Of a stretch of DNA of 52,958 nucleotides, positions 15,414-52,958 are shown one piece after another. How positions within the stretch are numbered: position 1 is the first letter of the stretch; the number at the start of each line of letters is the position of its first letter. The stretch lies in IMG/VR virus record IMGVR_UViG_2541047912_000003, one strand, 5' to 3'. The translations under genes and the position numbers were made by a program. A model generated the notes under the pieces. The model saw only the letters and a program-made list of their open reading frames with translations. It was not told the origin of the DNA and ran no database searches. The DNA is from a virus (Duplodnaviria > Heunggongvirae > Uroviricota > Caudoviricetes).

Positions 15414-15620
15414 ACATGAGTCAAATAGAAAAAAGATACTTGATTTAACAGAGATTTATTTTATAAATGAGAGGGTGCAGAATTACGTAGCAATACATGC
15501 TGCAATACATGGTTAGGGAAAAGCCTTCTTGGCATCGTACAAAAAACAAACCGAATTTTTTCTAACACAGCCAAGTAAAGCCTCCTTCACTTAATTAGTT
15601 AAATTATAAAGGAATATTCA

Positions 15621-17330: not shown

Positions 17331-17361
17331 GACCCGCCAGCCAGAGCGGGCCCTAATTTCA

Positions 17362-17745: not shown

Positions 17746-17756
17746 TGTATCCCCCT

Positions 17757-18098: not shown

Positions 18099-18107
18099 TG
18101 CTCCCCC

Positions 18108-19148: not shown

Positions 19149-19365
19149 ACGCATCCTCTTTGCATTCATTAAAAATAATTGTGGATATATGCTATCACCG
19201 ATATTTGTCATGCGAATACATGCAACCGAGTGCAATGTTGTATAAAGTTTTGGGATAACAACTCCAGCGCGGATAATTAGTGTTAATATCTTCACTCCCT
19301 TTGGTCGGGATTTATGTAGCATGCCGGAAAATTTATTTTTTTCCGGCCTTTTTTATTGGCAATAT

Positions 19366-19815
19366 TTAAAACGGAATATCATCTCCCCATTGCTCATTAT
19401 CTCCCACTGGTGGATGGCTTCCTTGCTGATCTGCCTGTTGTTTTGCTCTGTTCAGTGCGTCAGTAGCCTGACCCTGTTGACCTTTTTTGCCGCCCGGTCG
19501 CACCGTTCGCGCACTGATTACGCTGTCTGCGATAACCTGCCAGCCCTGCCGCGTTTCACCGTTCTGTCCAGTCCACTGGCTCACCTGCATATTACCCGCC
19601 ACGCTCAGGAGTTCGCCTTTGTGATGCTTTGCCAGCGCGTCGGCTTGTCTGCCAAACGCCAGGACAGATAACCACATCGTCGCCTGACCGTCATCCGACT
19701 GACTGCAGGGCAGTGATACCGCCATACGCGCCAGCGTCATGGGGGTGCCCTTGCTGGTCTGTTTTGTCTGCGGGTCGTCCACCAACCGCCCGTAAACTGA
19801 TATTTGCGCCGTCAT
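19366..19815 (-). CDS. ssb: single-stranded DNA-binding protein
   Basis: 149 aa, OB-fold-like N-terminus, Gly/Gln-rich linker and C-terminal acidic tip DDIPF; RBS present. Confidence 0.85.
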   Translation of the reverse strand: MTAQISVYGRLVDDPQTKQTSKGTPMTLARMAVSLPCSQSDDGQATMWLSVLAFGRQADALAKHHKGELLSVAGNMQVSQWTGQNGETRQGWQVIADSVISARTVRPGGKKGQQGQATDALNRAKQQADQQGSHPPVGDNEQWGDDIPF

Positions 19816-20057
19816 GCTGCCTGCTCTCCGGACTTAATATTGATTGTTGTCACTTCCTCCGCTTCAGCAATCTCCCGTTCGGTCAGAGTGGCAAAGTTTG
19901 CAGCCGCCGTTGTCATGAATGCGCTAATCAGTTCGGGATGTGCTTTCGCGTATCCTTCCCCGGCGTTGCGGTCGATGATTTTTATCGACACCCTTAACCA
20001 GTGTTCCGTCAAATCAAGGGCGTGCGATTGTGATTTTTTTGTGTGCTTCGCTGTCAT
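19812..20057 (-). CDS. hypothetical protein (81 aa), translationally coupled to ssb
   Basis: Stop overlaps the ssb start (ATGA); immediately downstream of the iteron region. Confidence 0.5.
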   Translation of the reverse strand: MTAKHTKKSQSHALDLTEHWLRVSIKIIDRNAGEGYAKAHPELISAFMTTAAANFATLTEREIAEAEEVTTINIKSGEQAA

Positions 20058-20099
20058 AGGCTTTATCTCACAGCAGTAAATTAAAATTTTTGCGTTTTA

Positions 20100-20335
20100 A
20101 CCCTTCACCTGTTCACCTTTTGATATTTTCTCTTTTAATTCATAATGTTAATGGGTGAACAGTTTCACAAAAACTATTCACCAACTGTTCACCACTGTTC
20201 ACCCTTGAAGCTCAATAAACAATCAAAAAGGTGAACAGTGAATAGTTTGGTGAACAGTTCATAAATAACTGTTCACCCTATAATATACTGATATAAAAGA
20301 TATTTATGACAGGGTGAACAGTGGTGAACAGTTAT
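20100..20335. repeat. iteron cluster (about 10 copies of TGTTCACC / GGTGAACAG in both orientations); putative satellite replication origin
   Basis: Motif recurs throughout 20103-20330 in an AT-rich context, immediately downstream of the primase-helicase gene. Confidence 0.75.
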
Positions 20336-20344
20336 TCCATAAGT

Positions 20345-22165
20345 TTAATTTTTGCTATCGTCATTAGTGACCGATACACATGATGGCATCCAGTCTTCTG
20401 ATTCCTCCGTCAGGGTCACGTTTGAACGCAAACCGTGCTTCGTTTTCCGTTTCATATACTCCCTGCCATATTCCGCCATTGCCCCCGGCATATCTTTACC
20501 GAAGCGCGTCAGTGTTACAGGTTTACCAAACCCATGTGCCCTCATATAAGCCAGATAGGCATGATAGAGATACCTGCGTGGGCTGAATGGCACAATTTCA
20601 GCATTACCCACTAACAGGCCATCACACATTACCGATGCCATGAGATAACCGCAGAAGTCCACCAGCGAATCCCCCTCTCGCTTTATCGCCAGTGCTTCTT
20701 CAGATTTCTGCTGCTCATATAACAGGCGTCTGGCTTCGTCCTGATCAGCAAACCTTGTAAGCAGATGACGAATCACTACCGCCAGCTCACCTTCTATTTT
20801 TTCCGCCAGCATCGAATCGCGTTCGTTCTCCGGTACAACTTCCGAAAAATTGAATATCACCCGACGACGTGAGATCCCCCCGCTGCGGTCACTGAATGAC
20901 ATGGCGTTATTGTTAACCGCCAGCACTACTGCCGGAATACGCGTTGAATAGGGGGCTTTGTGTTTCGGGTCAATTGCCACCTTGTCACCGCCTGTAATGG
21001 CCTTAATCCCTGCCCCATCACCAGCGTAGCGGGTCATATCCGGCATGATAATCAGCGAAAAGCCAACCACTAACGCACGTTCCCTTGCATCTTCCAGCGC
21101 CTTCATGCTTGCTGATACTGTATTAGCCTTACCCGCCAGCATGGTGCAAATCTCCGCCATCACACTTTTACCACTTCCCCCCGGCCCTGTTACCTCAATG
21201 AATAACTGCCAGTCGTACCGGTTCGCCAGCACCATGAATAATGCCGCCAGTACGCGATCTGCCTTGCGGTCATTCTCAGCCACCGAACGGCGCAACCACT
21301 TCCAGAAATTCGGCGCATGTGTTGCCAGCGTTTCCCCCTCTGCTGGTGGGCTGAAAGGTAATTCACTGGCAATTAACAACCAGTCGTTTTTGTTATGCTC
21401 CCGAAAATTACCAGTTCTGGTATCAAATACCCCGTTACTGAATCCAATCAGGTTACGGGCTGTATTCCCCATTACAGGCAAACTTAACTTCATGGTATCT
21501 ACCGCCGATTTAATAGCGTTCTGCGAATAGCTGATCTCCGCATCAATGAAAATCTGCGCCATAGCACGCTGTAACTCTTTATCCTGAACCGGCTCCCATA
21601 CAACGCCGTTGTAATGATGAACGGTGTCAGAGTCGGCATTGATTGCCAGTTCGCCGCCGTAATGTGCAAGGAGAACTTCACCGCGCTGGCTGGCCCCCAT
21701 CTGATTCAACGCCAAAGATGAAGCACGCTCGTCATTTTTGCGCTCAGCCTTCTTCACTGGCAGTTCAATCACCAGACTTTCCCCATGCTCCGCTTCAGCT
21801 TTTAGGCCGACAAGGCGCGGAGTCCAGTCTTCAGGCTCTCGATCAACAAAGCTACGGTAACAACGTGCTTCCTTTACGCCTGCAATAGCAAGTAATGTCG
21901 CAACCTTCGTCAGATTTTTCTCTGCAATCTTTCCGGCACGATAAACACGCACATAATGACGGCCTTCATCGATAATTTGCATATCATCCAGGTTTTCCAG
22001 TTGTTCCGTACCCAGAATTACTGGTGGTGTATCATCTGCTGCAATATGCTTACCCGCCCATTCATTCCATTCTTTTGCATGGCTCCAGGCATCACTGCCA
22101 GCAAAAATGATGACTTCTGTCATTTTGTCGCGCGGTTGGTATTTTAAGTTCGGAGCACGTTTCAT
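20345..22165 (-). CDS. replication primase-helicase (P4/PICI-type, P-loop NTPase)
   Basis: 606 aa with Walker A GPGGSGKS and downstream Walker B-like hydrophobic-acidic stretch; GGAGG RBS; adjacent iteron origin. Confidence 0.8.
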   Translation of the reverse strand: MKRAPNLKYQPRDKMTEVIIFAGSDAWSHAKEWNEWAGKHIAADDTPPVILGTEQLENLDDMQIIDEGRHYVRVYRAGKIAEKNLTKVATLLAIAGVKEARCYRSFVDREPEDWTPRLVGLKAEAEHGESLVIELPVKKAERKNDERASSLALNQMGASQRGEVLLAHYGGELAINADSDTVHHYNGVVWEPVQDKELQRAMAQIFIDAEISYSQNAIKSAVDTMKLSLPVMGNTARNLIGFSNGVFDTRTGNFREHNKNDWLLIASELPFSPPAEGETLATHAPNFWKWLRRSVAENDRKADRVLAALFMVLANRYDWQLFIEVTGPGGSGKSVMAEICTMLAGKANTVSASMKALEDARERALVVGFSLIIMPDMTRYAGDGAGIKAITGGDKVAIDPKHKAPYSTRIPAVVLAVNNNAMSFSDRSGGISRRRVIFNFSEVVPENERDSMLAEKIEGELAVVIRHLLTRFADQDEARRLLYEQQKSEEALAIKREGDSLVDFCGYLMASVMCDGLLVGNAEIVPFSPRRYLYHAYLAYMRAHGFGKPVTLTRFGKDMPGAMAEYGREYMKRKTKHGLRSNVTLTEESEDWMPSCVSVTNDDSKN

Positions 22166-22449
22166 TTATTACCTCCGGCAACTAACATTGCCCGAATTTT
22201 GCGGATATAGCCTGCGGCACGCCTCTGATTATCTGTCTTGCAATTTTTTACCAGAATGAAATCTCTTTCGAACTGCTGACGCGGCATAACACATTCAAAA
22301 TCATAACCATCACGCAAATAAGAGACACGGCGATCATCAACCGAAATAATCTTTACCCGATAGCCATAGCTATCTTTGAAAATATCCCCAAGGCTGATTT
22401 TTGAATGAGCTTGACCGCTGGCAATAAAGCCAGAAAATTTATTTTTCAT
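22162..22449 (-). CDS. hypothetical protein (95 aa) in the satellite replication operon
   Basis: RBS GGAGAA; stop overlaps the primase start. Confidence 0.5.
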   Translation of the reverse strand: MKNKFSGFIASGQAHSKISLGDIFKDSYGYRVKIISVDDRRVSYLRDGYDFECVMPRQQFERDFILVKNCKTDNQRRAAGYIRKIRAMLVAGGNK

Positions 22450-22451
22450 TT

Positions 22452-22676
22452 TTATTCTCCGGTATAGCTCTGGTCGTGTATTTTTATAGCTTCATCCAGC
22501 TCTTTGATGACAGGATCAAGTAACGTAATTAACGCTCCAGCTAAATTAGCATCCCGTTCATCGTGTTCCGCATTTGTTGTCCCATCAAGCCAGGTTGATA
22601 AGATTTCTCGCATATTTTTGCCACAAACGAGCGCGTTTTCAGCATGTGTCAGCACTTTAAAATAAAGATCATTCAT
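22452..22676 (-). CDS. hypothetical protein (74 aa) in the satellite replication operon
   Basis: RBS GGAGG 7 nt upstream; tightly packed with neighbours. Confidence 0.5.
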   Translation of the reverse strand: MNDLYFKVLTHAENALVCGKNMREILSTWLDGTTNAEHDERDANLAGALITLLDPVIKELDEAIKIHDQSYTGE

Positions 22677-23034
22677 GGCACACCTCCTGACGAATACGGG
22701 CGGCGAATATCATCACGCAGCCAGTTGGGGATTGCTGGCGGGCTTCCTGTTCGCTGGTGGCCTCGATGGTAATCACGCGCGGTTGTGTCGTACTCAGGGC
22801 GATAAAACGCCAGAGGAAATTGTTTTCACATTTCTGAATAAACAGCGTGTTTTCTTCCCGCCCTTTCCAGAAAGCCGCAGTATAGCCCATCTCCTTAACC
22901 ATCTTGCGGGCATCAACCAGCGTGTCAGCGGCTACATGTACCGTAGTTGCTCCATCTGCTATGCGATCGCGATGTAGCGCCAGAAAGATGTATATAAATT
23001 TAGGGTGAGTTTGGGTATGCTGTGTTCCAGCCAT
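22669..23034 (-). CDS. hypothetical protein (121 aa), first gene of the minus-strand satellite operon
   Basis: Internal Met of the 304-aa supplied ORF with GAGG RBS; the upstream extension is Ser/Arg-rich and overlaps a convincing plus-strand gene. Confidence 0.5.
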   Translation of the reverse strand: MAGTQHTQTHPKFIYIFLALHRDRIADGATTVHVAADTLVDARKMVKEMGYTAAFWKGREENTLFIQKCENNFLWRFIALSTTQPRVITIEATSEQEARQQSPTGCVMIFAARIRQEVCHE

Positions 23035-23039
23035 AATCG

Positions 23040-23240
23040 TTACCTCGTTTAACGGTTTGGTTAGAAGCCCGGTTAGTGTTCGCGCACTGCCGGGTTTCGT
23101 CGTTTTTATGAATCGATCATTGTGAGATACATAGCGACCATAATGTGAGATATACATTATATTGTGGTGATATACATTGCAAGTGTTTTTATATCTCACT
23201 TTTGTGTATAGTGATATACACATAACAAATTGGTGATTAA
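23040..23240. promoter_or_regulatory. divergent promoter/operator region of the satellite with repeated TGAGATA(T)ACAT-like motifs
   Basis: Several copies of gtgagatacat / gtgagatatacat / gtgatatacat between divergent genes at 23034 (minus) and 23243 (plus). Confidence 0.5.
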
Positions 23241-23242
23241 CT

Positions 23243-23545
23243 ATGTCTGTATACAAAAATGCAAAATCGCAAATGACAACGATCAGGGTTCCCCACGATG
23301 TTATGGAGGGCATGGAATCCGTAAAACTGGACGGCGAAAGCAACGCCGGATTCATAGTAACCGCCATGCGCGGTGAGATCGCCCGCCGCCAGGCAGAAGG
23401 AAGCGGAGAAAATCCCCTCGTGTCTTCACTGGATGCCTTAGCTAAGGTCGAACAAATCGGCATCAAGGCAGCGGAGGAAATCGGGCAACTCGTAGCCGTC
23501 GCTCGTGAAGAACTCCAGCGGCGTAAAGCCAAAGAATCTGAATAA
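23243..23545 (+). CDS. hypothetical regulator (100 aa), divergently transcribed from the satellite replication operon
   Basis: Charged, helix-rich protein adjacent to the operator repeats; position expected for a satellite repressor; no family recognised. Confidence 0.5.
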   Translation: MSVYKNAKSQMTTIRVPHDVMEGMESVKLDGESNAGFIVTAMRGEIARRQAEGSGENPLVSSLDALAKVEQIGIKAAEEIGQLVAVAREELQRRKAKESE

Positions 23546-23895
23546 TTAGTATCAGCGCCGTGATGTGAGTAACTACGGCGCATTGCTATGTAAATACTGG
23601 CAATAAACAGAAAAGGTAGTTCTACTCCGAATAATTTTATCTGACACTACTCCTAAACTAACATGCGCTTATCTTACAGGATATAAATATAAATCCATAA
23701 AATCACGATTAAATAAAGTCGCTCCAAATATAAACCACACCCAACGCTTAACAAGATAGCAACAAACAGATAAATAACTTGCAGAAATATTTATCGCAAG
23801 GATTATCATTATTAATGACAAATCACTTTACCAAGTCATTCCCCTCTCTTATCATAAAGAGAAAGTAATAAATAAGTTAAGGGAGTTAGAATGCT

Positions 23896-24432
23896 ATGAA
23901 TCTAAAAAAAATAGCCACAAACACAAAAAACAAGATAACAGAAACATTCAATAAACTTATATTAGAGGCATCTAAAACCCCCACACAAGATGAAATTAAA
24001 ATACTTGAGAGAAGGAGTAAGAAGTTTAATTACTCCTTTTTCTCATACGCAGTCACAGGAGCTATAATAGTTTTTTGCTCTCAACCATTAATAAAATACG
24101 CAAACCCAATACTTATTTTATTGAGTGGCCTGCTATTGTCTCTCACCATTATCCACCTCAGAATTCTTTATATTTCACAAACAAATAGATCATGGACAAA
24201 AAATAAAAAAACTGCATATATTATTTTAATTTTATCTGTATGTTTCCTAGCGTCAACATTGACGTTGCTATATCAGGCTTACGATAATAACATCACACAC
24301 AAATTGTACTGTAAAAATATACAACAACTTATTGAAAAAAGGATAGAAACAGAAAAAAACATCAGCATATTCAGTGGAATGCAATGCACCCCGGTATATG
24401 ATTACTCTTTATTTGGATTTAATCTCTTATAA
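23896..24432 (+). CDS. AT-rich integral membrane protein (178 aa, about 3-4 TM segments); cargo gene of the satellite
   Basis: Hydrophobic segments (AVTGAIIVFCSQPLI, ILILLSGLLLSLTIIHL, AYIILILSVCFLASTLTLL); very AT-rich relative to neighbours. Confidence 0.55.
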   Translation: MNLKKIATNTKNKITETFNKLILEASKTPTQDEIKILERRSKKFNYSFFSYAVTGAIIVFCSQPLIKYANPILILLSGLLLSLTIIHLRILYISQTNRSWTKNKKTAYIILILSVCFLASTLTLLYQAYDNNITHKLYCKNIQQLIEKRIETEKNISIFSGMQCTPVYDYSLFGFNLL

Positions 24433-24440
24433 AGAATGTT

Positions 24441-24476
24441 ATTACTGATTTGAGTACAAATTCTCAAATCAGTAAT
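24441..24476. terminator. perfect 14-bp inverted repeat hairpin between convergent genes (likely bidirectional terminator)
   Basis: attactgatttgag / ctcaaatcagtaat arms with 8-nt loop, followed by a T-rich tract. Confidence 0.6.
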
Positions 24477-24501
24477 TCATAATATTTTATTCTGAGATAA
24501 T

Positions 24502-24738
24502 TTAAACTACCCACTCACCTCGAATCCATGCCTGCACTTCTGAAAGACGATATGCAACAGCAGTGGAACCAATCTTGATCCGCTTAGGAAATTTTCCTTC
24601 CTTCTCCAGCTTCCAGCGTGTGCTGTTCGCAAGAGTGGTTAGCTCCCGACATTCTTTCTCACGGATCATTCGGTCAATGTTAGGAATGTACTCCAGACCC
24701 TTTTTATCAACAATTGCCATTTTTTTCATGTTAACCAA
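24502..24738 (-). CDS. alpA: AlpA-family excisionase/transcriptional regulator
   Basis: 78 aa, HTH (ELTTLANSTRWKLEKEGKFPKRIKIGSTAVAYRLSEVQAWI) typical of AlpA/Xis; immediately downstream of int. Confidence 0.8.
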   Translation of the reverse strand: MVNMKKMAIVDKKGLEYIPNIDRMIREKECRELTTLANSTRWKLEKEGKFPKRIKIGSTAVAYRLSEVQAWIRGEWVV

Positions 24739-25966
24739 CCTTTTGTTTGAGGATCGTCACTTTTGAATCAGCACCTGCGATGCTATTGAGATATGTAGTC
24801 CAGAGTTCCAGAGCATCCAGTTTTTTAGCCATAAACTTACTCCGGTTGTAAACACCTGCCACGCCAGGTAGCGCATGGCCTAACAGTTGTTCTACTACAT
24901 AAAATTCAACACCGAGATCACTTAGATGAGTAGATAGCGTTCTTCTAAGGTCGTGTAGTGACCATTGTTTTTCATGGCCCAAACGTTTACCGATTTTCCC
25001 CCCAATCTTGCTTACGCTTTCTCTAATTCGCAGACTTCCCAGCACATAACCAGTATGTTTTGTCTCTTCGTGAACATCCGTTACCCACTGTCGTAGAATT
25101 TCAGGTACTGGTCTGACGATTTCAACACCAGTTTTTGAGTGATCTTTTGGTACAGTCCAAACCCAACTTTCGAGATCCCATTCGCTCCATTCTGATAATC
25201 GGGCTTCACTCATTCGACATCCAAATACTGTACAAAGCACAAACATTTTTCGCGTGTATTCAGACATTAGTTTTAAATCAGGCTCGACAAAAATTGCCTT
25301 CCAGAGCTGGCCGAGTTCGGCTTCATCCAGAACCCGATCCCGCTTACCTGCAATCTGCCCCACATCACTCATGCGCAAATCCTTTAAAGCATCACACGTC
25401 GCGTACTGGCGTACCCGACAAAAACGAAGAGCTAATTTAGTGTCAGAAAAAACATACGCCGCCATAACTGGTGCATTACGTTTAATTCGGTCAAAACAGT
25501 CCAGCCATTCATATAGGTGAGTGTCATTTACGGGCAAATGACCGATATAGGGAAAGATATGCTTTCGAAATCTGCCAAGCGTTACAGCATGAGTTTTACG
25601 ACGCACCTTACAGTAATTTTCATACCAGTAATTTAGTGCATCCTCCACTGTGACCGGCTTTAAGCGTTCTTCAGCCTGAATCTTAATCTGGATACGCGGA
25701 TCACGTTTGTCAGCCAACCAACCACGGCACTCGTCGCGCTTTTCCCTTGCCTGTTTGAGTGACATATCAGGATATTTACCCAACGTTAGCCAGACCGGAG
25801 CAGCCCGGCCACCTGCTAACCTGTAGAAGAAAACAAAGCTCACAGCCCCTTTAGTACTCACACGAATAGAAAGCCCCTTTCCATCAGCAATGGTGATCTG
25901 CTTTTCTCTGGGTTTCCCCAGATATCCTTTAAGCGCTTTGTCGCTCAGTTTGTTCTCGCCAGCCAT
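24731..25966 (-). CDS. int: tyrosine integrase (P4-type) of the satellite
   Basis: N-terminal arm-binding region, catalytic region with HDLRRT and HxLGH-like (LLGHA) motifs and terminal Tyr (VYNRSKF); start taken at MAGENKLSD. Confidence 0.85.
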   Translation of the reverse strand: MAGENKLSDKALKGYLGKPREKQITIADGKGLSIRVSTKGAVSFVFFYRLAGGRAAPVWLTLGKYPDMSLKQAREKRDECRGWLADKRDPRIQIKIQAEERLKPVTVEDALNYWYENYCKVRRKTHAVTLGRFRKHIFPYIGHLPVNDTHLYEWLDCFDRIKRNAPVMAAYVFSDTKLALRFCRVRQYATCDALKDLRMSDVGQIAGKRDRVLDEAELGQLWKAIFVEPDLKLMSEYTRKMFVLCTVFGCRMSEARLSEWSEWDLESWVWTVPKDHSKTGVEIVRPVPEILRQWVTDVHEETKHTGYVLGSLRIRESVSKIGGKIGKRLGHEKQWSLHDLRRTLSTHLSDLGVEFYVVEQLLGHALPGVAGVYNRSKFMAKKLDALELWTTYLNSIAGADSKVTILKQKVG

Positions 25967-26098
25967 TTTTAGCCCCAAAAAGCAATACAAGCTGCAATAC
26001 AGAGATGATTGCAACACACAGATAACGAGGAAAATTCAGTGAAAGCGCCAGATAAATTTATTCTTTATTATCAAAAGATTAAGTGTAAAAACCAGCAA

Positions 26099-26374
26099 CT
26101 ACACGAAAGCCTCAGAAAGCCATGCTAAGTGCTTGGGTTTGACATAACCCGGCGTAAATTCAGAGGTGGAGCCGCCACGGGATCGGATAACCTCACCGGA
26201 AACAATCGGCGAAACGTACAGCGCCATGTTTACCAGTCCCGGAATTTGTGAGAGATAGACTTTTTCCGTGGTGAAAGGATAGGTTTCACGGAAAAACAGG
26301 CGCAGAAACAGCGGATCGAACTTAAAGTGATGCTGGGTCGATGCCAGTAATTCTGCAGTTGTATATACAGACAT
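26099..26374 (-). pseudogene. E: major capsid protein E, N-terminal 82 codons, fused in frame to 9 codons of satellite DNA
   Basis: MSVYTTAELLASTQHHFKFDPLFLRLFFRETYPFTTEKVYLSQIPGLVNMALYVSPIVSGEVIRSRGGSTSEFTPGYVKPKH matches the lambda gpE N-terminus, then diverges (LAWLSEAFV, stop) at the junction. Confidence 0.9.
26130..26139. repeat. right copy of 10-bp direct repeat tgcttgggtt (putative att core, attR side)
   Basis: Identical to 15404-15413; encodes the PKH codons present at both E fragment ends. Confidence 0.7.
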
Positions 26375-34089: not shown

Positions 34090-34383
34090 ATGAAAAAAAT
34101 GTTGTTTTCTGCCGCTCTGGCAATGCTTATTACAGGATGTGCTCAACAGACGTTTACTGTTGGAAACAAACCTACAGCAGTAACACCAAAGGAAACCATC
34201 ACCCATCATTTCTTCGTTTCGGGAATTGGGCAGAAGAAAACTGTCGATGCAGCAAAAATTTGTGGTGGTGCAGAAAATGTTGTTAAAACAGAAACCCAGC
34301 AAACATTCGTAAATGGATTGCTCGGTTTTATTACTTTAGGCATTTATACTCCGCTGGAAGCGCGTGTGTATTGCTCACAATAA
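34090..34383 (+). CDS. bor: Bor lipoprotein (serum-resistance moron)
   Basis: 97 aa from MKKMLFSAALAMLITGCAQQTF matches lambda Bor; opposite strand to the lysis genes as in lambda. Confidence 0.9.
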   Translation: MKKMLFSAALAMLITGCAQQTFTVGNKPTAVTPKETITHHFFVSGIGQKKTVDAAKICGGAENVVKTETQQTFVNGLLGFITLGIYTPLEARVYCSQ

Positions 34384-36900: not shown

Positions 36901-37983
36901 ATGAAAAAATTAACAGTGGCAATTTCTGCTGTAGCTGCATCAGTACTGATGGCGATGTCTGCTCAGGCAGCTGAAATTTATAATAAAGACAGTAACAAGC
37001 TGGATCTATACGGGAAAGTTAATGCCAAGCACTACTTCTCCTCTAATGATGCAGATGATGGTGATACTACTTATGCCCGTCTTGGCTTCAAAGGTGAAAC
37101 CCAAATCAACGATCAACTGACTGGTTTCGGTCAGTGGGAATATGAATTCAAAGGCAACCGTGCTGAATCTCAAGGTTCTTCCAAAGACAAAACCCGTCTT
37201 GCATTTGCAGGCCTGAAATTTGGTGATTACGGCTCAATCGATTACGGCCGTAACTACGGTGTAGCATACGACATCGGTGCGTGGACTGACGTCCTGCCAG
37301 AATTCGGTGGTGATACCTGGACCCAAACAGATGTGTTCATGACTGGTCGCACTACTGGTGTTGCAACTTATCGTAACAACGACTTCTTTGGTCTGGTCGA
37401 TGGCCTGAACTTTGCTGCTCAGTATCAGGGTAAAAATGACCGCACTGACGTAACTGAAGCCAATGGTGATGGTTTCGGTTTCTCCACTACTTATGAGTAT
37501 GAAGGATTCGGCGTGGGTGCAACCTATGCTAAATCAGATCGCACTGACGGTCAGGTCGCCTATGGTAAGAGCAAATTCAATGCCTCCGGCAAAAATGCGG
37601 AAGTATGGGCTGCAGGCCTGAAATATGATGCGAACAATATCTATCTGGCTACCACATATTCTGAAACTCAGAATATGACCGTTTTTGGTAATAACCATAT
37701 TGCAAACAAAGCACAAAACTTTGAAGCAGTAGCACAATATCAGTTTGACTTCGGTCTGCGACCATCTGTTGCTTACCTTCAGTCAAAAGGTAAAGACCTT
37801 GGTGTTCATGGTGACCGAGACTTAGTCAAGTATGTCGATGTCGGTGCTACTTACTACTTTAATAAAAACATGTCCACTTTTGTTGATTACAAAATCAACT
37901 TAATTGACGATAGTAAGTTTACCAAAACAGCTGGTATTGATACCGACGACATCGTCGCTGTAGGTCTGGTTTATCAGTTCTAA
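36901..37983 (+). CDS. outer-membrane porin (OmpC/NmpC/Lc family) lysogenic-conversion moron
   Basis: 360 aa, signal peptide [39 protein letters not shown] start and C-terminal VGLVYQF typical of enterobacterial general porins; sits between Q and the holin as nmpC/lc do. Confidence 0.9.
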
Positions 37984-40972: not shown

Positions 40973-41725
40973 TTACTCCTTTTTGGGTGCATACACGTTG
41001 TTTATCCGTTCAATATGAATAGTTACATCCGGGCTTTCTAAGAATAAGAAGTCAATCAAATGACCAATGAGAATGCAGGCATCATTAATAGAGGACCTTG
41101 TGACTTTAATCCCTCCATGACTGCCGTGATTCCCCAACCACTTTAACGCCATGAATGCATCTTTATTTGGTCCCAGTTTATCTGAATAATTTGTGATTCT
41201 TTCATGCGTAGAAAGACGTATTATCTTGCCTTTAACTGTTTTCTCTCTTGGTACATCAAGACTATCAAGCATCATCTCCAGTATGGTTCTCATGGTGTTC
41301 ACCGCTGAAGCTGGGTGCGAGGGGATCAGAGCTGATACTTCCGCCAAGAGATCAGCTATATCTTCAGGGCACTTTTCAGGAAACAGGAATAGAGGAAGTG
41401 GTGGATAGAAATACTTAGGACGGAAACCAGAAACATACCAACGCTCCGTCATTTCGTCATTGAAGCATTCTACAGCAACAACCTGCCCAGACAAAGCAAC
41501 CTTCTCCTGGCAGGCTTGGCGGGTACAGCGCAGCACGCAACTGAATACTCCTCCCGACATTTCCTCATCAAACCATACTTCATCTCTAAACTGAGTTGTT
41601 GCGCTTGAATCAGTTTCTACAAAACTATCAGCGACAATCTCCAGTGTTTCATTCATACAGTTCGGGCAGCGCCAAGCTGGTGCGTCATTTCGTTTAAACG
41701 TGGCATACAGTAATTTAGGATCCAT
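40973..41725 (-). CDS. hypothetical protein (250 aa) with N-terminal Cys4 zinc-ribbon-like motif; nin-region insert
   Basis: WRCPNCMNE...CVLRCTRQAC Cys pairs at the N-terminus; C-terminal LKWLGNHGSHGG; no lambda counterpart. Confidence 0.5.
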   Translation of the reverse strand: MDPKLLYATFKRNDAPAWRCPNCMNETLEIVADSFVETDSSATTQFRDEVWFDEEMSGGVFSCVLRCTRQACQEKVALSGQVVAVECFNDEMTERWYVSGFRPKYFYPPLPLFLFPEKCPEDIADLLAEVSALIPSHPASAVNTMRTILEMMLDSLDVPREKTVKGKIIRLSTHERITNYSDKLGPNKDAFMALKWLGNHGSHGGIKVTRSSINDACILIGHLIDFLFLESPDVTIHIERINNVYAPKKE

Positions 41726-45744: not shown

Positions 45745-46770
45745 ATGGTTGATTCTATGAATAGTGAAAATAGCAGCTCTGTAAATAAAAAACATAATAA
45801 ACCTAAACAAGTGAAATTAAGAGCTTTTAAGATAGAAAACAATAATCTAACAGAAAAATCTAGCCCCGCGAAAAAGCTTTTATTACAAAAGCTAGTTGAC
45901 TCATCTACCGTAAAAGAACGTTGCATGGTTTTAAACTCTGACGATCTTAGGCAAGAACAAGATTTGATATCGTTCTATCAGACATCAGACAACAGTAATT
46001 CTGTTTTTTGTACAATGGTTAGAATTGCCCCAAGCGAGGGAGTTGAAAAGATTCCCGATCAACTTTTTAACAAAAAATCATTTACAATTAGTGATCTCCA
46101 TAATGCTGACATTGATACAGAGGTCGTATGCAAAAACCATTTCTACTTCTGTATAAGTGATAATTATTTAGTTACCAATCTGCAGATGAATAGGACTATA
46201 TCATCTCTACAAACTTATATACGCTGGCTGGTTGGGAATGAAATGATTGAATTCACACCGATGATTGTTAAAGGTAATAAAGTTCAGCTTAAGGATATAA
46301 AATCAATTTCTGTGAGAGATCCATCTCCTCTTCCAAAAGAAGTATTGGTTCAGTCATCCGATATGAAATCGCCACCATCAGAAATTGAAGAAAAAAATAC
46401 AAAAATAAAACTTTCACACGCTGTTTTAAATGCATTGAAATCAGCTGTACCAAATTTCCCAAATCTAAAAGAAATAATTGACAATCAAATAGTATCAGCT
46501 GAACTGTTAATAAAGTTTAGTAAACCAAGGAGCATGGATGAAGATAGTTATGCTAAACTATTAGGTGCAACATTAAAACCTGTTAGTGATCTTGATAACA
46601 TTGTATTCAAACGAAGTGATGGTCGCTCAGAAATAAAAGGCAAAGATCTTCTTAAGATTAAAAATGTAACAATTGAGGTTACTGATTCAGGCAAGCTTGT
46701 AGAACAAGAGGTATTTCAAGAAATGAGCAGATATTTAAAAGAGATAGAAAATGAAGCGACAAATAGCTAG
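45745..46770 (+). CDS. hypothetical AT-rich protein (341 aa) at the rexA position; candidate abortive-infection sensor
   Basis: Same strand as and immediately downstream of cI; AT-rich; no detectable similarity to lambda RexA by eye, only positional and architectural analogy. Confidence 0.55.
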   Translation: MVDSMNSENSSSVNKKHNKPKQVKLRAFKIENNNLTEKSSPAKKLLLQKLVDSSTVKERCMVLNSDDLRQEQDLISFYQTSDNSNSVFCTMVRIAPSEGVEKIPDQLFNKKSFTISDLHNADIDTEVVCKNHFYFCISDNYLVTNLQMNRTISSLQTYIRWLVGNEMIEFTPMIVKGNKVQLKDIKSISVRDPSPLPKEVLVQSSDMKSPPSEIEEKNTKIKLSHAVLNALKSAVPNFPNLKEIIDNQIVSAELLIKFSKPRSMDEDSYAKLLGATLKPVSDLDNIVFKRSDGRSEIKGKDLLKIKNVTIEVTDSGKLVEQEVFQEMSRYLKEIENEATNS

Positions 46771-47200
46771 CTTGCTAATTGTTCTGATAATTACTATCGG
46801 GCTTCCATCATTTTTAGCTTGGAGGCCTGATCAGTTTTTGATTTCTACATTGTATTCTGTCTGTGGCATAATGTTTTCTATCGGGTTAGGGTTGATTGTA
46901 ACTTTTAACATGTCTGGCATTAAAAACATTAATTATGTTAAAGTTATCAGAAAAGAATTGGTATCTATACGAAATTCTTTTTTGCGCTTTTTCACTCTTT
47001 CTACTTTATGCCTTGTGCTTAGTGAATATTTAAAAGAGTATGAGTTCAGCTTTGAATTTAAATCCCTGATACTAAAATTCTCTCCTTCAATACTTTTTTT
47101 CACATTAATAATTTACGCAATTGTCTTCTTCATAGTAAATTTCCTAAATGTGCAAAAATTAAGTCATGATATCTTCGATAAGATCAATCAAGAACAATAA
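46751..47200 (+). CDS. hypothetical 4-TM membrane protein (149 aa) at the rexB position
   Basis: Four hydrophobic segments; start overlaps the upstream gene by 20 nt; followed by an intrinsic terminator. Confidence 0.55.
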   Translation: MKRQIASLLIVLIITIGLPSFLAWRPDQFLISTLYSVCGIMFSIGLGLIVTFNMSGIKNINYVKVIRKELVSIRNSFLRFFTLSTLCLVLSEYLKEYEFSFEFKSLILKFSPSILFFTLIIYAIVFFIVNFLNVQKLSHDIFDKINQEQ

Positions 47201-47228
47201 CCCGGCCACCGTGCCGGGTTTTCTTTTG
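47201..47228 (+). terminator. intrinsic terminator ending the cI-cassette transcript (timm-like)
   Basis: CCCGGC-caccgt-GCCGGG hairpin followed by TTTTCTTTT immediately after the stop at 47200. Confidence 0.7.
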
Positions 47229-47339
47229 CCCTCCCCTCATCACACACCGTTCAAAAAACCACCACGACCTCGCTTCAGTTATCGCTATGCGATGCAAGTC
47301 ACAAAATAAATCCATCTTAAATACAACCAGTTATATCTA

Positions 47340-47400
47340 AAACAACCAACAAAACAACTTTTGTTGTTGACGATAAAACAACTATAGTTTTAAATGAATT
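47340..47400 (+). promoter_or_regulatory. pL-like promoter with OL-like operators
   Basis: TTGACG (47367-47372), 17-bp spacer, TTAAAT (47390-47395); overlapped by AACAACTTTTGTTGTT palindrome and further ACAAC motifs shared with the OR region. Confidence 0.5.
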
Positions 47401-47588
47401 CATCGCAACAACACAACGATACGGCAATCACCTGATTCACCGTTGCGATGACCGCTTAGATCCGCAGCTTGAATTTCAGCAGGCTCCGGGGAGTGCGAGG
47501 GGTGAAGCGGACGCGTGAACGTCGGTGTGACCAGCTGAAATCAACTCAACACTTCATACCTCAGTCGCTTCAACGAGGCGGCTTAGTT

Positions 47589-47879
47589 ATGACAACCGGC
47601 GGCCATCCACCGCCTGAATACGCGCAGAAGTCTCTATATGTTCAGCAGCCCAGCTTACGGGCAGGAGTTTTTATGGTTCATCAACATTACGGAACGCAGA
47701 CCGTTAATCGCGGTGCGGTCATGCCAGGAATGCTGGTCAAACACAAAGATGGTACCTGGACTGCATCAGCTAATCTACGCGGACGGCTTTATCTTCATCG
47801 CGGCATCGAGCGCACTTATACCCGTGACTTGCTCGTGGAAATTTTTCTCGACGGACGCGGCAACGGCCTGAATCACTAA
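47589..47879 (+). CDS. hypothetical protein (96 aa), first ORF of the early-left operon
   Basis: ATG with GAGG RBS; the supplied ORF extends upstream from a TTG; not recognisable as lambda N, cIII or kil. Confidence 0.4.
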   Translation: MTTGGHPPPEYAQKSLYVQQPSLRAGVFMVHQHYGTQTVNRGAVMPGMLVKHKDGTWTASANLRGRLYLHRGIERTYTRDLLVEIFLDGRGNGLNH

Positions 47880-47954
47880 CCCCCTTTCCTGTTTTCCTAA
47901 TCAGCCTGGCATTTCCCGGGCAATAGTTTCACAGCCATTTTCAGGAGTTCAGCC

Positions 47955-48251
47955 ATGAACGCTTATTACATTCAGGATCGTCTTGAGGCTCAGAGCTGGG
48001 CGCGTCACTACCAGCAGATCGCCCGTGAAGAGAAAGAGGCAGAACTGGCAGACGACATGGAAAAAGGCCTGCCCCAGCACCTGTTTGAATCGCTATGCAT
48101 CGATCATTTGCAACGCCACGGGGCCAGCAAAAAAGCCATTACCCGTGCGTTTGATGACGATGTTGAGTTTCAGGAGCGCATGGCAGAACACATCCGGTAC
48201 ATGGTTGAAACCATTGCTCACCACCATGTTGATATTGATTCAGAGGTATAA
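47955..48251 (+). CDS. gam: Gam (RecBCD inhibitor), short form
   Basis: 98 aa, [40 protein letters not shown] matches lambda GamS. Confidence 0.95.
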
Positions 48252-48256
48252 AACGG

Positions 48257-49042
48257 ATGAGTACAGCACTCGCAACGCTAGCCGGGAAGCTGGCTGAACG
48301 TGTCGGCATGGATTCTGTCGACCCACAGGAACTGATCACCACTCTTCGTCAGACGGCATTTAAAGGTGATGCCAGCGATGCGCAGTTCATCGCATTGCTG
48401 ATCGTCGCCAACCAGTACGGCCTTAATCCGTGGACGAAAGAAATTTACGCCTTCCCTGATAAGCAGAACGGCATCGTTCCTGTGGTGGGCGTTGATGGCT
48501 GGTCCCGCATCATTAATGAAAACCAGCAGTTTGATGGCATGGACTTTGAGCAGGACAATGAATCATGTACATGCCGGATTTACCGCAAGGACCGTAATCA
48601 TCCGATCTGCGTTACCGAGTGGATGGATGAATGCCGCCGCGAACCATTCAAAACCCGCGAAGGCAGAGAAATCACGGGACCGTGGCAGTCGCATCCCAAA
48701 CGAATGTTACGGCATAAAGCTATGATTCAGTGTGCCCGTCTGGCCTTCGGATTTGCTGGTATCTATGACAAGGATGAAGCCGAGCGCATTGTCGAAAATA
48801 CCGCATACACTGCAGAACGTCAGCCGGAACGCGACATCACTCCGGTTAACGATGAAAGCATGCAGGAGATTAACACTCTGCTGATCGCCCTGGATAAAAC
48901 ATGGGATGACGACTTATTGCCGCTCTGTTCCCAGATATTTCGCCGCGACATTCGCGCATCGTCAGAACTGACACAGGCCGAAGCAGTAAAAGCTCTTGGA
49001 TTCCTGAAACAGAAAGCCGCAGAGCAGAAGGTGGCAGCATGA
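48257..49042 (+). CDS. bet: Bet single-strand annealing recombinase
   Basis: 261 aa, matches lambda Bet. Confidence 0.95.
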
Positions 49043-49719
49043 CACCGGACATTATCCTGCAGCGTACCGGGATCGACGTGAGAGCTGTCGAACAGGGGGA
49101 TGATGCGTGGCACAAATTACGGCTCGGCGTCATCACAGCTTCAGAAGTTCATAACGTAATAGCAAAACCCCGCTCCGGAAAAAAGTGGCCTGACATGAAA
49201 ATGTCCTACTTCCACACCCTGCTTGCTGAGGTTTGCACCGGTGTGGCTCCGGAAGTTAACGCTAAAGCGCTGGCCTGGGGAAAACAGTACGAGAACGACG
49301 CCAGAGCCCTGTTTGAGTTCACTTCCGGCGTGAATGTTACTGAATCACCGATCATCTATCGCGACGAAAGTATGCGTACCGCCTGCTCTCCAGATGGTTT
49401 ATGCAGTGACGGCAACGGCCTTGAACTGAAATGCCCGTTTACCTCCCGGGATTTCATGAAGTTCCGGCTCGGTGGTTTCGAGGCCATAAAGTCAGCTTAC
49501 ATGGCCCAGGTGCAGTACAGCATGTGGGTGACGCGAAAAGATGCCTGGTACTTTGCCAACTATGACCCGCGTATGAAGCGTGAAGGACTGCATTATGTCG
49601 TGGTTGAGCGGGATGAAAAGTACATGGCGAGTTTTGACGAGATGGTGCCGGAGTTCATCGAAAAAATGGACGAGGCACTGGCTGAAATTGGTTTTGTATT
49701 TGGGGAGCAATGGCGATGA
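49039..49719 (+). CDS. exo: lambda exonuclease
   Basis: 226 aa, matches lambda Exo. Confidence 0.95.
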
Positions 49720-49874
49720 AGCATCCTCACGATAATATCCGGGTAGGTGCGATCACTTTCGTCTACTCCGTTACAAAGCGAGGCTGGGTATTTCCCGGGC
49801 CTTCTGTTATCCGAAATCCGCTGAAAGCCCAGCGACTGGCTGAGGAGATAAATAATAAACGGGAGAGTGTATGA
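49716..49874 (+). CDS. small ORF (52 aa) translationally coupled to exo and to the downstream gene
   Basis: ATGA overlaps at both ends (49716-49719 and 49871-49874); below the ORF-track size cut-off; translated by hand. Confidence 0.3.
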
Positions 49875-50623
49875 TTCATTTTCACGGTGGTCCAATAACT
49901 CCCGATACCTGTGCGTTGAAAGCCTGGAAAGGCAGACACGCATTCATCAGTTTTGCTAATCCAGCTCAGATTGATCTGGCTTCCGAAGTCACCCAATCAT
50001 TTGCTCTTGATAATGGTGCATTCACATTCTGGACAAAAAACAAGGCCGTAGACTGGAATGAATATTACAGATTTGTTGAACGCTGGGGTAATCACCCTCG
50101 TTTCTCATTCGCGGTTATCCCGGATGTTATCGGCGGAACCAGTGAAGAGAATGACGCCCTGATTGCGGCATGGCCTCACGGTAAATTTATTGGTGCTCCG
50201 GTGTGGCACATGAACGAACCAGATGAGCGATTTATTCGTCTGTGCCATGAGTTTCCCCGCGTCTGCATCGGCTCGATGGGGGAATACGATGCAAAACGAC
50301 CGAGAGCGTGTCGGGCTAAACTACGCGATCTTATACGTCATGTTGTAGATCAGTACGGCTACCCAATCACCAAGATTCATGGGTTACGGATGTTAAATAA
50401 AGACATTTTTACTCATGTACCGCTTTCGTCTGCAGACAGCACGAACGTCGCAAGAAATATAGGCATCGACAAATCCTGGGTAGGTTCGCCATATGCTCCC
50501 GCAAGTAAAGAAACCCGTACGCAAGTTCTTGTGGAACGCATTGAATCATTCAACAGTGCCAGTTCACTTAATTACAACGCTGAACGGGACGTCTTTACCC
50601 CTCAGTTGGCATTCGAAGTGTGA
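49871..50623 (+). CDS. TGT-like (DpdA-like) putative transglycosylase in the exo-xis region
   Basis: 250 aa; LDNGAFTFW resembles the catalytic TDSGGFQ(V)F region of tRNA-guanine transglycosylases and CIGSMG resembles the LMGVG region; no Zn-binding C-terminal subdomain; family assignment from motif recall only. Confidence 0.4.
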   Translation: MIHFHGGPITPDTCALKAWKGRHAFISFANPAQIDLASEVTQSFALDNGAFTFWTKNKAVDWNEYYRFVERWGNHPRFSFAVIPDVIGGTSEENDALIAAWPHGKFIGAPVWHMNEPDERFIRLCHEFPRVCIGSMGEYDAKRPRACRAKLRDLIRHVVDQYGYPITKIHGLRMLNKDIFTHVPLSSADSTNVARNIGIDKSWVGSPYAPASKETRTQVLVERIESFNSASSLNYNAERDVFTPQLAFEV

Positions 50624-50630
50624 GGCCAAT

Positions 50631-50846
50631 ATGACAATAGAACATAATAACGCCCTTCGCAGCATTGCCCGTCAGGCTAATTGTGAAATCAAAAAAGCCA
50701 GACAGCAGTTTCCGGATAAAAACGTCGATGACATTTGCCGTAGCGTACTGAAGAAGCACCGCGAAACGGTAACGCTGATGGGATTCACACCGACTCATTT
50801 AAGCCTAGCGATCGGCATGTTAAACGGCGTTTTTAAGGAACGGTGA
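50631..50846 (+). CDS. hypothetical protein (71 aa), exo-xis region
   Basis: Internal ATG with GAGG RBS; the longer supplied ORF overlaps the upstream gene. Confidence 0.4.
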   Translation: MTIEHNNALRSIARQANCEIKKARQQFPDKNVDDICRSVLKKHRETVTLMGFTPTHLSLAIGMLNGVFKER

Positions 50847-50944
50847 ACATGAAAAGCAAAATCATCAGGGAGCTACAGGCTCCTTTTCTATTATTCGCAT
50901 TCACCCTCAAGCGTATTAACCAACAATTCAGGGATTAATGGAAG

Positions 50945-51163
50945 ATGGCAGACATCATTGATTCAGCATCAGAAATTGAAGAATTACAGCGCAACACAGC
51001 AATAAAAATGCGCCGCCTGAACCACCAGGCTATATCTGCCACTCATTGTTGTGAGTGTGGCGATCCCATAGATGAGCGAAGACGCCTGGCCGTTCAGGGT
51101 TGTCGGACTTGTGCAAGTTGCCAGGAGGAGATCGAACTTAAGAACAAACAATGGGGATTGTAA
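50945..51163 (+). CDS. DksA/TraR-type C4 zinc-finger protein
   Basis: 72 aa with CCECGDPI...CRTCASC four-Cys motif, typical of exo-xis-region TraR-like proteins. Confidence 0.75.
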   Translation: MADIIDSASEIEELQRNTAIKMRRLNHQAISATHCCECGDPIDERRRLAVQGCRTCASCQEEIELKNKQWGL

Positions 51164-51210
51164 TGGCCTCAAAGCAGCAAATTTCAACATCGTCCAACTG
51201 AGGTGTAAAA

Positions 51211-51450
51211 ATGTTCAGAATCATTTTTCCTAACACCTGGTACGTCGACCACCACGGCACTCCCTGCAAAATCCTGCGTTCTACCCACAACAAAGTTCAC
51301 TACATCCAAAAAGGCAGAACATGTATCGCCAGCATGTTCCGCTTTAATCATGACTTTGAACCTGTGAATAAAGCTGATGCAGATCGGATAGCCGAAGAGA
51401 TCGATACAGCAGAACACATTAAGAAGTTACGTGCCATACGCAGGAAATAG
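51211..51450 (+). CDS. hypothetical protein (79 aa), exo-xis region
   Basis: ORF with plausible spacing in the operon; no family recognised. Confidence 0.4.
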   Translation: MFRIIFPNTWYVDHHGTPCKILRSTHNKVHYIQKGRTCIASMFRFNHDFEPVNKADADRIAEEIDTAEHIKKLRAIRRK

Positions 51451-51589
51451 AAAAATTGATAAATTCAATACTGCATTTCTCAGCATTAAATTTATCTCTA
51501 TGACCAGTCAAGAGATGTACCTGCCATGAGCTTAATATCATGTCAGATATATCGGTCACAAACTCCCTCAGTAGCTAAGAGGAGGACAA

Positions 51590-51826
51590 ATGTCTCGACT
51601 AATCACTTTACAGGACTGGGCTAAAGAAGAATTTGGGGACTTAGCACCAAGTGAGCGAGTTCTGAAAAAATACGCGCAAGGGAAAATGATGGCCCCACCC
51701 GCTATAAAAGTTGGTCGCTACTGGATGATTGACCGAAATTCCCGTTTTGTAGGAACGCTTGCAGAACCGCAACTCCCAATAAACGCAAACCCAAAACTCC
51801 AACGGATAATCGCTGATGGCTGCTAG
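51590..51826 (+). CDS. xis: excisionase Xis
   Basis: 78 aa; LTLQDWAKEE...PPAIKVGRYWMIDRNSRF resembles the lambda Xis winged helix; overlaps the int start. Confidence 0.8.
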   Translation: MSRLITLQDWAKEEFGDLAPSERVLKKYAQGKMMAPPAIKVGRYWMIDRNSRFVGTLAEPQLPINANPKLQRIIADGC

Positions 51827-52958
51827 ACCCCGATCTCACAAAATCTCTATACCCAATTTATATTGCAAATTAGATAAGCGAACCGGAAAGGTATATTGGC
51901 AATACAAACATCCACTATCCGGTCGTTTTCATAGCTTAGGAACTGATGAGAATGAAGCAAAACAAGTTGCTACTGAAGCAAATACCATTATTGCTGAACA
52001 ACGTACCCGACAAATATTAAGCGTCAATGAGCGTCTGGAAAGAATGAAAGGCAGGCGCTCAGACATTACGGTGACAGAATGGCTTGATAAATATATTTCT
52101 ATCCAGGAGGACAGGCTGCAACATAATGAACTAAGACCCAACTCCTATCGGCAAAAAGGCAAACCCATTCGTCTTTTCCGTGAGCATTGTGGAATGCAAC
52201 ACCTCAAGGATATTACCGCACTTGATATTGCCGAAATAATTGATGCTGTAAAGGCTGAAGGTCATAACAGGATGGCGCAAGTCGTGAGAATGGTGTTAAT
52301 CGACGTCTTCAAAGAAGCACAACACGCAGGACATGTTCCGCCAGGATTTAACCCAGCGCAGGCAACAAAACAACCGCGAAATCGAGTAAACCGCCAAAGA
52401 TTATCACTGCCCGAATGGCAGGCAATATTTGACAGCGTAAGCAGACGGCAGCCCTATTTAAAATGCGGGATGCTACTTGCTCTTGTCACTGGACAACGTT
52501 TAGGCGATATCTGCAATTTGAAATTCTCTGATATCTGGGACGACATGTTGCACATTACTCAGGAAAAAACCGGTTCAAAACTTGCTATTCCGCTTAACCT
52601 GAAATGCGATGCTCTGAATATTACCCTTCGTGAAGTTATATCTCAGTGCAGGGATGCTGTTGTTAGTAAATATCTGGTCCATTACCGTCACACAACCTCT
52701 CAAGCAAACAGAGGAGACCAGGTTTCTGCGAATACTCTGACAACGGCTTTTAAAAAGGCCAGGGAAAAATGTGGCATAAAATGGGAGCAAGGAACTGCGC
52801 CCACATTTCATGAGCAGCGATCTCTGTCAGAACGGTTATATCGGGAACAGGGTCTGGATACGCAAAAGTTGTTAGGCCATAAATCCAGAAAAATGACCGA
52901 CCGATACAATGATGATCGTGGTAAAGACTGGATTATCGTAGATATCAAAACAGCATAG
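51816..52958 (+). CDS. int: prophage tyrosine integrase (lambda Int family)
   Basis: 380 aa; N-terminal arm-binding region (ARPRSHKISIPNLYCKLDKRTGKVYWQY), C-terminal catalytic region with HEQRSL, LLGHKS and terminal Tyr (DRYNDD); the stop is the last codon of the window. Confidence 0.9.
   Translation: MAARPRSHKISIPNLYCKLDKRTGKVYWQYKHPLSGRFHSLGTDENEAKQVATEANTIIAEQRTRQILSVNERLERMKGRRSDITVTEWLDKYISIQEDRLQHNELRPNSYRQKGKPIRLFREHCGMQHLKDITALDIAEIIDAVKAEGHNRMAQVVRMVLIDVFKEAQHAGHVPPGFNPAQATKQPRNRVNRQRLSLPEWQAIFDSVSRRQPYLKCGMLLALVTGQRLGDICNLKFSDIWDDMLHITQEKTGSKLAIPLNLKCDALNITLREVISQCRDAVVSKYLVHYRHTTSQANRGDQVSANTLTTAFKKAREKCGIKWEQGTAPTFHEQRSLSERLYREQGLDTQKLLGHKSRKMTDRYNDDRGKDWIIVDIKTA

Follow-up and report, generated by a model that had tools for sequence, protein, structure and literature searches.

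Described 7-deazaguanine transglycosylases

The DpdA family matters because phages use 7-deazaguanine modification of DNA as a counter-defence, against which modification-dependent nucleases such as GrwAB are in turn directed. In Escherichia phage CAjan, DpdA (DpdA1) is a protein of 306 residues with a C-terminal extension, whose gene lies within a FolE-QueD-QueC-QueE cluster together with a preQ0 transporter, and which inserts dPreQ0 at about 32% of G. Deletion of CAjan dpdA resulted in the loss of dPreQ0 from virion DNA (Hutinet et al. 2019, PMC6884629). The same study described a third group of 76 phages that have DpdA without homologues of G+ or preQ0 biosynthesis genes, and stated that the Q pathway is encoded by the hosts of such DpdA-only phages; in a similarity network, singleton DpdAs from gamma-proteobacterial phages formed a cluster of their own (PMC6884629). 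Phage 7-11, the only tested member of this cluster, carries 50 dADG per 10^6 nt in its virion DNA (about 0.02% of G), and no modification was found in the singleton phage Orion (PMC6884629). When expressed alone in E. coli, phage DpdAs use host pools without DpdB, yielding 84-790 dPreQ0 per 10^6 nt with the 9g enzyme, 926-1607 dPreQ0 per 10^6 nt with nt-1 DpdA2, and about 2765 dPreQ1 per 10^6 nt with VH7D DpdA2.

The bacterial enzyme (bDpdA) of S. Montevideo (PDB 7UI4) has 413 residues, a structural Zn site, and the insertions Ins1, Ins2, Ins3, and Ins8, the last forming a subdomain of 128 residues. Its activity depends on the DpdB ATPase, and its gene belongs to the dpdA-K cluster (Dpd restriction-modification system; PMC10164549). 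In its active site, Asp95 serves as acid/base, Phe99 and Leu236 sandwich the base, Asp256 is the nucleophile, Asp130 and His181 recognise the Watson-Crick edge, and Gly206/Gly207 form the loop for the 7-substituent; guanine exchange is abolished in D95A and D256A (PMC10164549). Two further enzymes are relevant for comparison. Cap10 of type IV CBASS (PDB 9NTN) acts on the deazaguanine-modified N-terminus of a CD-NTase, is encoded in an operon with Cap9, and has a pair of nucleophile and partner residue, H226/D248. Tgt (PF01702; 375 residues) contains a CxCxxC Zn motif and a C-terminal tRNA-binding part.

Organization of the locus

The locus considered here lies in an E. coli prophage adjoining icd, represented by a stretch of 52,958 nucleotides (IMGVR_UViG_2541047912_000003), hereafter the window. 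Based on gene calls and domain searches, the + strand of the window corresponds to a lambda-type leftward early operon with the following features:

48257-49042, + strand: bet
49039-49719, + strand: exo, lambda exonuclease with a YqaJ domain (PF09588, E=2.3e-30; 'lambda exonuclease family protein' in PGAP)
49716-49874, + strand: 52-codon DUF1317 ORF (PF07026, E=1.3e-32; phrog_1998), with an ATGA overlap at each end
49871-50623, + strand: 250-aa DpdA-like protein of the TGT superfamily, 100% identical to phage SfI YP_009147480
50631-50846, + strand: 71-aa phrog_303 gene (PHROG match and PGAP call), downstream of the DpdA-like gene
beyond the phrog_303 gene, + strand: DksA/TraR zinc-finger gene, DUF4222 gene, xis, and int

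Direct reading of the bases showed that the TGA of exo overlaps the ATG of the 52-codon ORF within ATGA at 49716-49719, and that the TGA of this ORF overlaps the ATG of the 250-codon ORF within ATGA at 49871-49874. A Shine-Dalgarno-like run (GGGAGAG, 49861-49867) ends 3 nt upstream of the ATG at 49871. PGAP called these three genes, with identical 4-nt overlaps, in the E. coli chromosome NZ_CP151067, which matches at 100% identity, and labelled the 250-aa protein there 'hypothetical protein'. The two ORFs and both ATGA couplings behind exo, as well as the LDNGAFTFW segment (residues 46-54), are therefore present as proposed in a first-pass annotation of this DNA made from the sequence alone.

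Annotations of the neighbouring ORFs differ in two places. RefSeq starts the SfI DUF1317 ORF at an upstream ATG at 49710 (two codons earlier, 54 aa), and PGAP at 49716 (52 aa). RefSeq also calls a 117-aa ORF from 50493 in SfI that overlaps the 3' end of the DpdA-like gene, where PGAP calls the 71-aa gene from 50631, which matches phrog_303 end to end.

A consensus scan of 47200-51835 found no sigma-70-like promoter site on the + strand, and no convincing terminator was found between exo and the DpdA-like gene, so the latter appears to belong to the leftward early (pL-type) operon. A terminator-like hairpin is located at 50867-50885, 3' of the phrog_303 gene.

Distribution and a mosaic junction

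The same protein occurs in phage SfI as gp34 (YP_009147480), with 100% identity and in the same slot of the exo-xis region, following exo and DUF1317. The two copies differ in their setting, as the window copy resides in the E. coli prophage, whose capsid gene is interrupted. Among 5,426 complete E. coli genomes, the DpdA-like gene was found in 99, always on the chromosome, at least 99% identical, and labelled 'hypothetical protein', while about 3,900 of these genomes contain the flanking sequence. Of 224 phage records matching positions 49000-51200, only three contain the gene (at least 80% coverage of that segment). The DpdA-like gene is thus an optional module, whose extent was obtained from an alignment with NC_049946 that breaks at 49873/49874 and resumes at about 50643:

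49874-50642, + strand: mosaic module, missing from most lambdoid relatives

In phage 4A7, a DUF1382 gene fills the slot and uses the same start codon, which overlaps the stop of DUF1317 (L006, 1375-1651). Since homology with 4A7 stops exactly at the ATG of the gene and an alternative gene uses the same ATG, the ATGA coupling is a property of a conserved mosaic junction at which the cargo is swapped. Many lambda-like phages likewise carry a DUF1382 gene at the ATG overlapping the DUF1317 stop.

Family membership and predicted fold

A search against PHROGs placed the 250-aa protein in PHROG 887 (phrog_887, 'queuine tRNA-ribosyltransferase') with E=4e-99, and CAjan DpdA falls into the same family (E=8e-96). 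BLASTP aligned the two proteins over residues 46-192 (E=2e-4; about 21% identity), and an hhalign comparison of 52 relatives of the 250-aa protein with 33 relatives of CAjan DpdA gave 96.1% probability and E=3.1e-9 over 147 columns. A total of 6,182 homologues were found at E<=1e-3 in 90% clusters, corresponding to 1,701 representatives at 50% identity, mostly of about 250 aa, and 60 columns are invariant across 52 enterobacterial relatives that share 63-90% identity; thus the 250-codon ORF is not a chance ORF. Two alignments were used for residue conservation, A1 with the 52 relatives and A2 with 64 sequences, which takes in the 7-11 and CAjan proteins.

General domain libraries do not reach this clade, which is covered by neither Pfam nor NCBIfam. 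Scans of the 250-aa protein against Pfam, NCBIfam, and PADLOC gave no match, and the NCBIfam and PADLOC DpdA HMMs gave none even at E<=1-10. When the 64 members of the broad alignment were compared with PADLOC and Pfam, CAjan DpdA alone matched DpdA (E=1.3e-3) and none matched TGT (PF01702). This weak match, between CAjan residues 147-209 and positions 200-259 of the PADLOC model, is the only sequence bridge toward bacterial DpdA. Searches of PDB sequences with the family profiles A1, A2, and A3 (hmmsearch) and with CAjan DpdA (phmmer) reached no Tgt or bacterial DpdA, and the GCN4 and designed-repeat matches obtained were set aside as noise. An hhalign comparison of A2 with the E. coli Tgt sequence (1.6% probability) was uninformative because a one-sequence template has no profile. 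The comparison with TGT and DpdA profiles suggested by the first-pass annotation therefore had a divided outcome: the family assignment stands on PHROG 887, while the Pfam TGT, NCBIfam, and PADLOC DpdA models are unmatched.

An AlphaFold2 model built on the 52-sequence alignment (mean pLDDT 82.1, pTM 0.81) shows an alternating strand/helix pattern and is predicted to form a TGT-like (beta/alpha)8 barrel. In structure comparison, the highest-scoring chains included Cap10 (9ntn_B, 15.9), DNA preQ0 insertase DpdA (7ui4_A, 14.0), archaeosine TGT (1iq8, 13.8), bacterial Tgt (3unt, 12.5), and QTRT2 (6fv5, 11.6), and unrelated barrels scored up to 12.5. Five of the seven top chains belong to one superfamily, with a modest margin above the unrelated barrels. 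Foldseek against PDB returned generic barrels only, e.g. PdxJ and TrpA. Among predicted viral structures, the significant matches were phage proteins annotated as queuine tRNA-ribosyltransferase and a protein of Vibrio phage nt-1.

Taken with the conserved residues described below, these results indicate that the 250-aa protein very probably belongs to the phage DpdA family. The initial call had relied on short motifs; it now holds on PHROG 887, hhalign, the predicted barrel with Cap10, DpdA, and TGTs among the top chains, residue conservation, and a prior listing of the SfI protein. The identification itself is already known, as RefSeq names the SfI protein queuine tRNA-ribosyltransferase and PHROGs carries the same annotation. 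In the work of Hutinet et al. 2019, YP_009147480 is entered as DpdA in Supplementary Data 1 together with proteins of HK106, SPN3UB, BTP1, SEN1, SE131, PEAT2, and 7-11, these phages being members of the third, DpdA-only group (PMC6884629), which agrees with the earlier remark that family members are known in phages.

Predicted active-site residues

Six conserved elements were recognised in the 250-aa protein: LDNGAF (D47, F51), IPDVIG (D85), VWHMNE (H113), IGSMGE (G134), IHGLRM (H170), and SADST (D189). Their spacing is 38/28/21/36/19 residues, compared with 44/29/21/35/19 in the phage 7-11 protein (36% identical to the 250-aa protein) and 42/27/21/34/19 in CAjan DpdA. The same order is found in E. 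coli Tgt (TDSGGF, FDEC, IQGS, GGLAVGE, YLMGVG, and MFDCV; sequence verified against PDB 10fa/10fb). D47, H170, D189, and S190 are invariant in the 64-sequence alignment; at least 90% of its sequences retain D85, H113, and G134, of which D85 and H113 are invariant in A1. In the predicted structure, each element is placed at the C-terminal end of a successive β-strand, and the C-terminal ends of strands are where TIM-barrel active sites lie. The codons of the putative catalytic and recognition residues are as follows:

50009-50023, + strand: D47-N-G-A-F51, predicted to supply the general acid/base (D47) and the base-gating Phe (F51) where strand 43-47 ends; aligns with CAjan D63/F67
50123-50125, + strand: D85 (IPDVIGG), predicted base-recognition Asp; paired with CAjan D105 by BLASTP, 3 residues off in hhalign
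50207-50209, + strand: H113 (VWHMNE), candidate for the position of bDpdA His181, judged from order and spacing alone
50378-50380, + strand: H170 (KIHGLRM), aligns with CAjan H187; candidate nucleophile partner, 19 residues before D189
50435-50437, + strand: D189 (SSADST), predicted nucleophile Asp; aligns with CAjan D206

Because the elements follow the order seen in Tgt, and both the order and nearly the spacing seen in the 7-11 and CAjan proteins, LDNGAF can be regarded as the acid/base-Asp motif, and the likening of this segment to the catalytic Asp region of TGT/DpdA enzymes is borne out by its alignment with CAjan LDSGAF and its resemblance to Tgt TDSGGF. Judging from order, spacing, and the CAjan-PADLOC match, D47, D85, and D189 would correspond to bDpdA D95, D130, and D256, respectively. 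H170 and D189 may form a pair similar to H226/D248 of Cap10. An assignment of H170 to bDpdA His181 was also considered and dropped, as spacing appears to favour H113 and H170 would occupy the beta-7 position near Tgt Met244 and Cap10 H226.

Comparison with known systems

CAjan DpdA and the 250-aa protein have in common PHROG 887, the elements LDxGAF, xxD-hG, H, GxxG, and H-x18-D-S, and the lack of a Zn motif; the CxCxxC motif of Tgt is absent from both as well as from the 7-11 protein. They differ in length, in the C-terminal extension of the CAjan protein, and in genetic setting, since the window prophage has none of the pathway genes that surround the CAjan gene. Bacterial DpdA is more distant. 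Its HMMs leave the 250-aa protein unmatched, a protein of this size has no room for Ins8, and neither a Zn site nor a dpd cluster was found, the neighbours being exo, DUF1317, and phrog_303. With Tgt, the 250-aa protein shares the superfamily fold and active-site layout, but it lacks the Zn motif, the C-terminal tRNA-binding part, and any Pfam match. Cap10 resembles it in fold only (10% identity), and no gene for a CD-NTase (CdnD) or QueC-like Cap9 was found in the annotated prophage.

Precursor supply and the extent of modification

No folE, queC, queD, or queE gene was found in the prophage annotation, so any donor base must come from the host. E. coli as host would be expected to supply the queuosine-pathway precursor. 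The context of related genes favours DNA as the substrate: Red recombination genes are present in SfI and the window, a dNMP kinase gene adjoins the gene in 7-11, and in Vibrio phage K391 the relative is flanked by helicase and primase genes, with a DNA methyltransferase gene nearby.

The analysis covers gene structure, family membership, predicted fold, residue conservation, the lack of pathway genes, and the modular distribution; as to the substrate, the donor base, the extent of modification, and the biological benefit, we infer a scheme based on the TGT/DpdA mechanism. With 250 residues and no Zn motif, the protein is a minimal representative of the phage DpdA branch within the tRNA-guanine transglycosylase superfamily. 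Its gene is placed in the delayed-early leftward operon and coupled to exo via the DUF1317 ORF; given this place in the operon, the protein would be made while phage DNA replicates and recombines. It would then act on double-stranded phage DNA by double displacement, in which D189 would attack C1' of the target deoxyguanosine, D47 would protonate the leaving guanine, and a 7-deazaguanine base of the host queuosine pathway (preQ0, possibly preQ1) would resolve the covalent intermediate. As precursor genes are missing from the phage, sparse substitution is expected; it would probably be motif-restricted and well under 1% of G, and could provide at most site-selective protection from restriction. 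Overall, a low-level insertion of host-derived 7-deazaguanine into phage DNA seems reasonably probable.

The first-pass annotation had gone further and suggested DNA hypermodification as an anti-restriction strategy. This part is unsupported and probably overstated: the prophage is DpdA-only, without preQ0 genes, the protein lacks the Zn subdomain seen in Tgt and bacterial DpdA, and the low level in 7-11 and the unmodified DNA of Orion mean that hypermodification is not predicted by the nearest evidence. Sparse, possibly motif-specific substitution appears likelier than hypermodification, and low-level or site-specific modification from host precursors would be the realistic expectation. A literature search found no test of a temperate-phage singleton DpdA.

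Two relatives with fused domains were also observed. In P0253 (Ga0452210_009018, 2840-3847; L007), the DpdA-like domain is located behind a QueD/PTPS domain (PF01242, 1.2e-24); this is a single case on one metagenomic contig with no other Que genes called, which may be a chimera and is suggestive only. In P0237, the DpdA-like domain, without its first ~38 residues, is located behind a truncated Dam-type N6-adenine DNA methyltransferase (PF02086, 8.6e-62), which may reflect recombination or an assembly chimera. If real, the two fusions would connect this clade with the preQ0 pathway as well as with DNA modification.

Alternative explanations

The gene could encode a genuine DpdA homologue that has no measurable effect on phage DNA, either as a drifting accessory module or for want of a partner or precursor supply. 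The data on Orion and 7-11 are in line with such an explanation, as are the dependence of bDpdA on the DpdB ATPase, with no partner in the prophage, and the dispensability of the gene, which is missing from most near-identical lambdoids and carried by just 99 of the 5,426 genomes. However, the putative active site is under strong purifying selection across thousands of relatives, the gene is intact and at least 99% identical in all 99 E. coli copies, and DpdB is not needed by phage DpdA1 and DpdA2, which are active in E. coli on their own. A lack of effect is on the unlikely side.

It is more doubtful that the enzyme acts on a target other than DNA, such as host tRNA or a 7-deazaguanine-protein conjugate in a Cap10-like manner, possibly as a counter-defence. 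Cap10 ranks first in the structure comparison, but this rank may only be due to its size, 325 residues being the shortest length among solved TGT-fold proteins. In addition, no CD-NTase or Cap9/QueC-like gene is nearby, the 250-aa protein lacks both a C-terminal tRNA-binding domain and a Zn domain, its sequence is closer to the validated DNA-modifying CAjan DpdA, and the context always consists of DNA replication or recombination genes. A broader and quite speculative proposal, to which we assign little probability, is that the solo Zn-less DpdA-like enzymes of temperate enterobacterial phages either place a sparse motif-specific mark from host precursors or act on deazaguanine-protein conjugates; the conjugate action would fit Cap10 being the closest solved structure.

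That the protein is an unrelated TIM-barrel enzyme with a coincidental short-motif resemblance to TGT/DpdA is hardly credible and already largely refuted, despite the missing Pfam, NCBIfam, and PADLOC matches and the generic barrels (PdxJ and TrpA) returned by Foldseek.

State of the prophage and neighbouring loci

An island of ~10.7 kb (15412-26128 of the window; GC 43% vs 51%) splits the lambda-E-like major capsid gene of the prophage, which is on the minus strand. Its junctions lie within 14623-15399 and 26099-26374, with only an 11-bp direct repeat near them, and the N-terminal capsid fragment ends in GYVKPKH and the C-terminal fragment begins with VNPQMTL. The island carries an integrase gene, two AlpA genes, a primase-like gene, SSB, an Icd-like gene, a Phage_cap_E capsid gene (1.9e-41), and head-decoration genes, and it looks like a capsid-forming satellite (PICI/P4-like) integrated into the capsid gene of a helper-type prophage. 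The prophage is probably unable to use its own capsid protein for packaging DNA, and the effect of the DpdA-like enzyme on virion DNA may be unrealised in the strain of the window. The island also encodes a 380-aa protein (15621-16763, + strand) with an N-terminal TIR domain (PF13676, 2.8e-21) and a C-terminal DUF3298, which weakly matches the TIR parts of pAgo-associated and Thoeris ThsB-type PADLOC models and is a candidate satellite-borne anti-phage effector.

Several accessory genes were observed elsewhere in the window. Two overlapping ORFs (45745-47200, + strand), one for a 341-aa protein and one for a 149-aa protein with hydrophobic membrane-like segments, are located between the repressor gene and kil/gam, the usual lambdoid site of exclusion or defence morons (rex/sieB-like); they gave no Pfam or PADLOC match and are followed by a strong terminator-like hairpin (47200-47219). 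In the late region, an OmpC-family porin gene (36901-37983, + strand) and an iss/bor serum-survival lipoprotein gene (34090-34383, + strand), both classic lysogenic-conversion morons, are oriented opposite to the surrounding phage genes. A 250-aa DUF4145 protein (7.8e-12; 40973-41725, - strand; no PADLOC match) is encoded in the nin region next to a frameshifted homologue of DNA polymerase III theta.

Implications

The gene adds nothing new to the DpdA catalogue. If action on deazaguanine-protein conjugates were true, it would represent a counter-measure to deazaguanine-based immunity, e.g. type IV CBASS. The SfI-type temperate phages of E. coli and Shigella would offer a convenient genetic system for asking whether DpdA-only phages modify their DNA at all and, if so, with which base and to what advantage.
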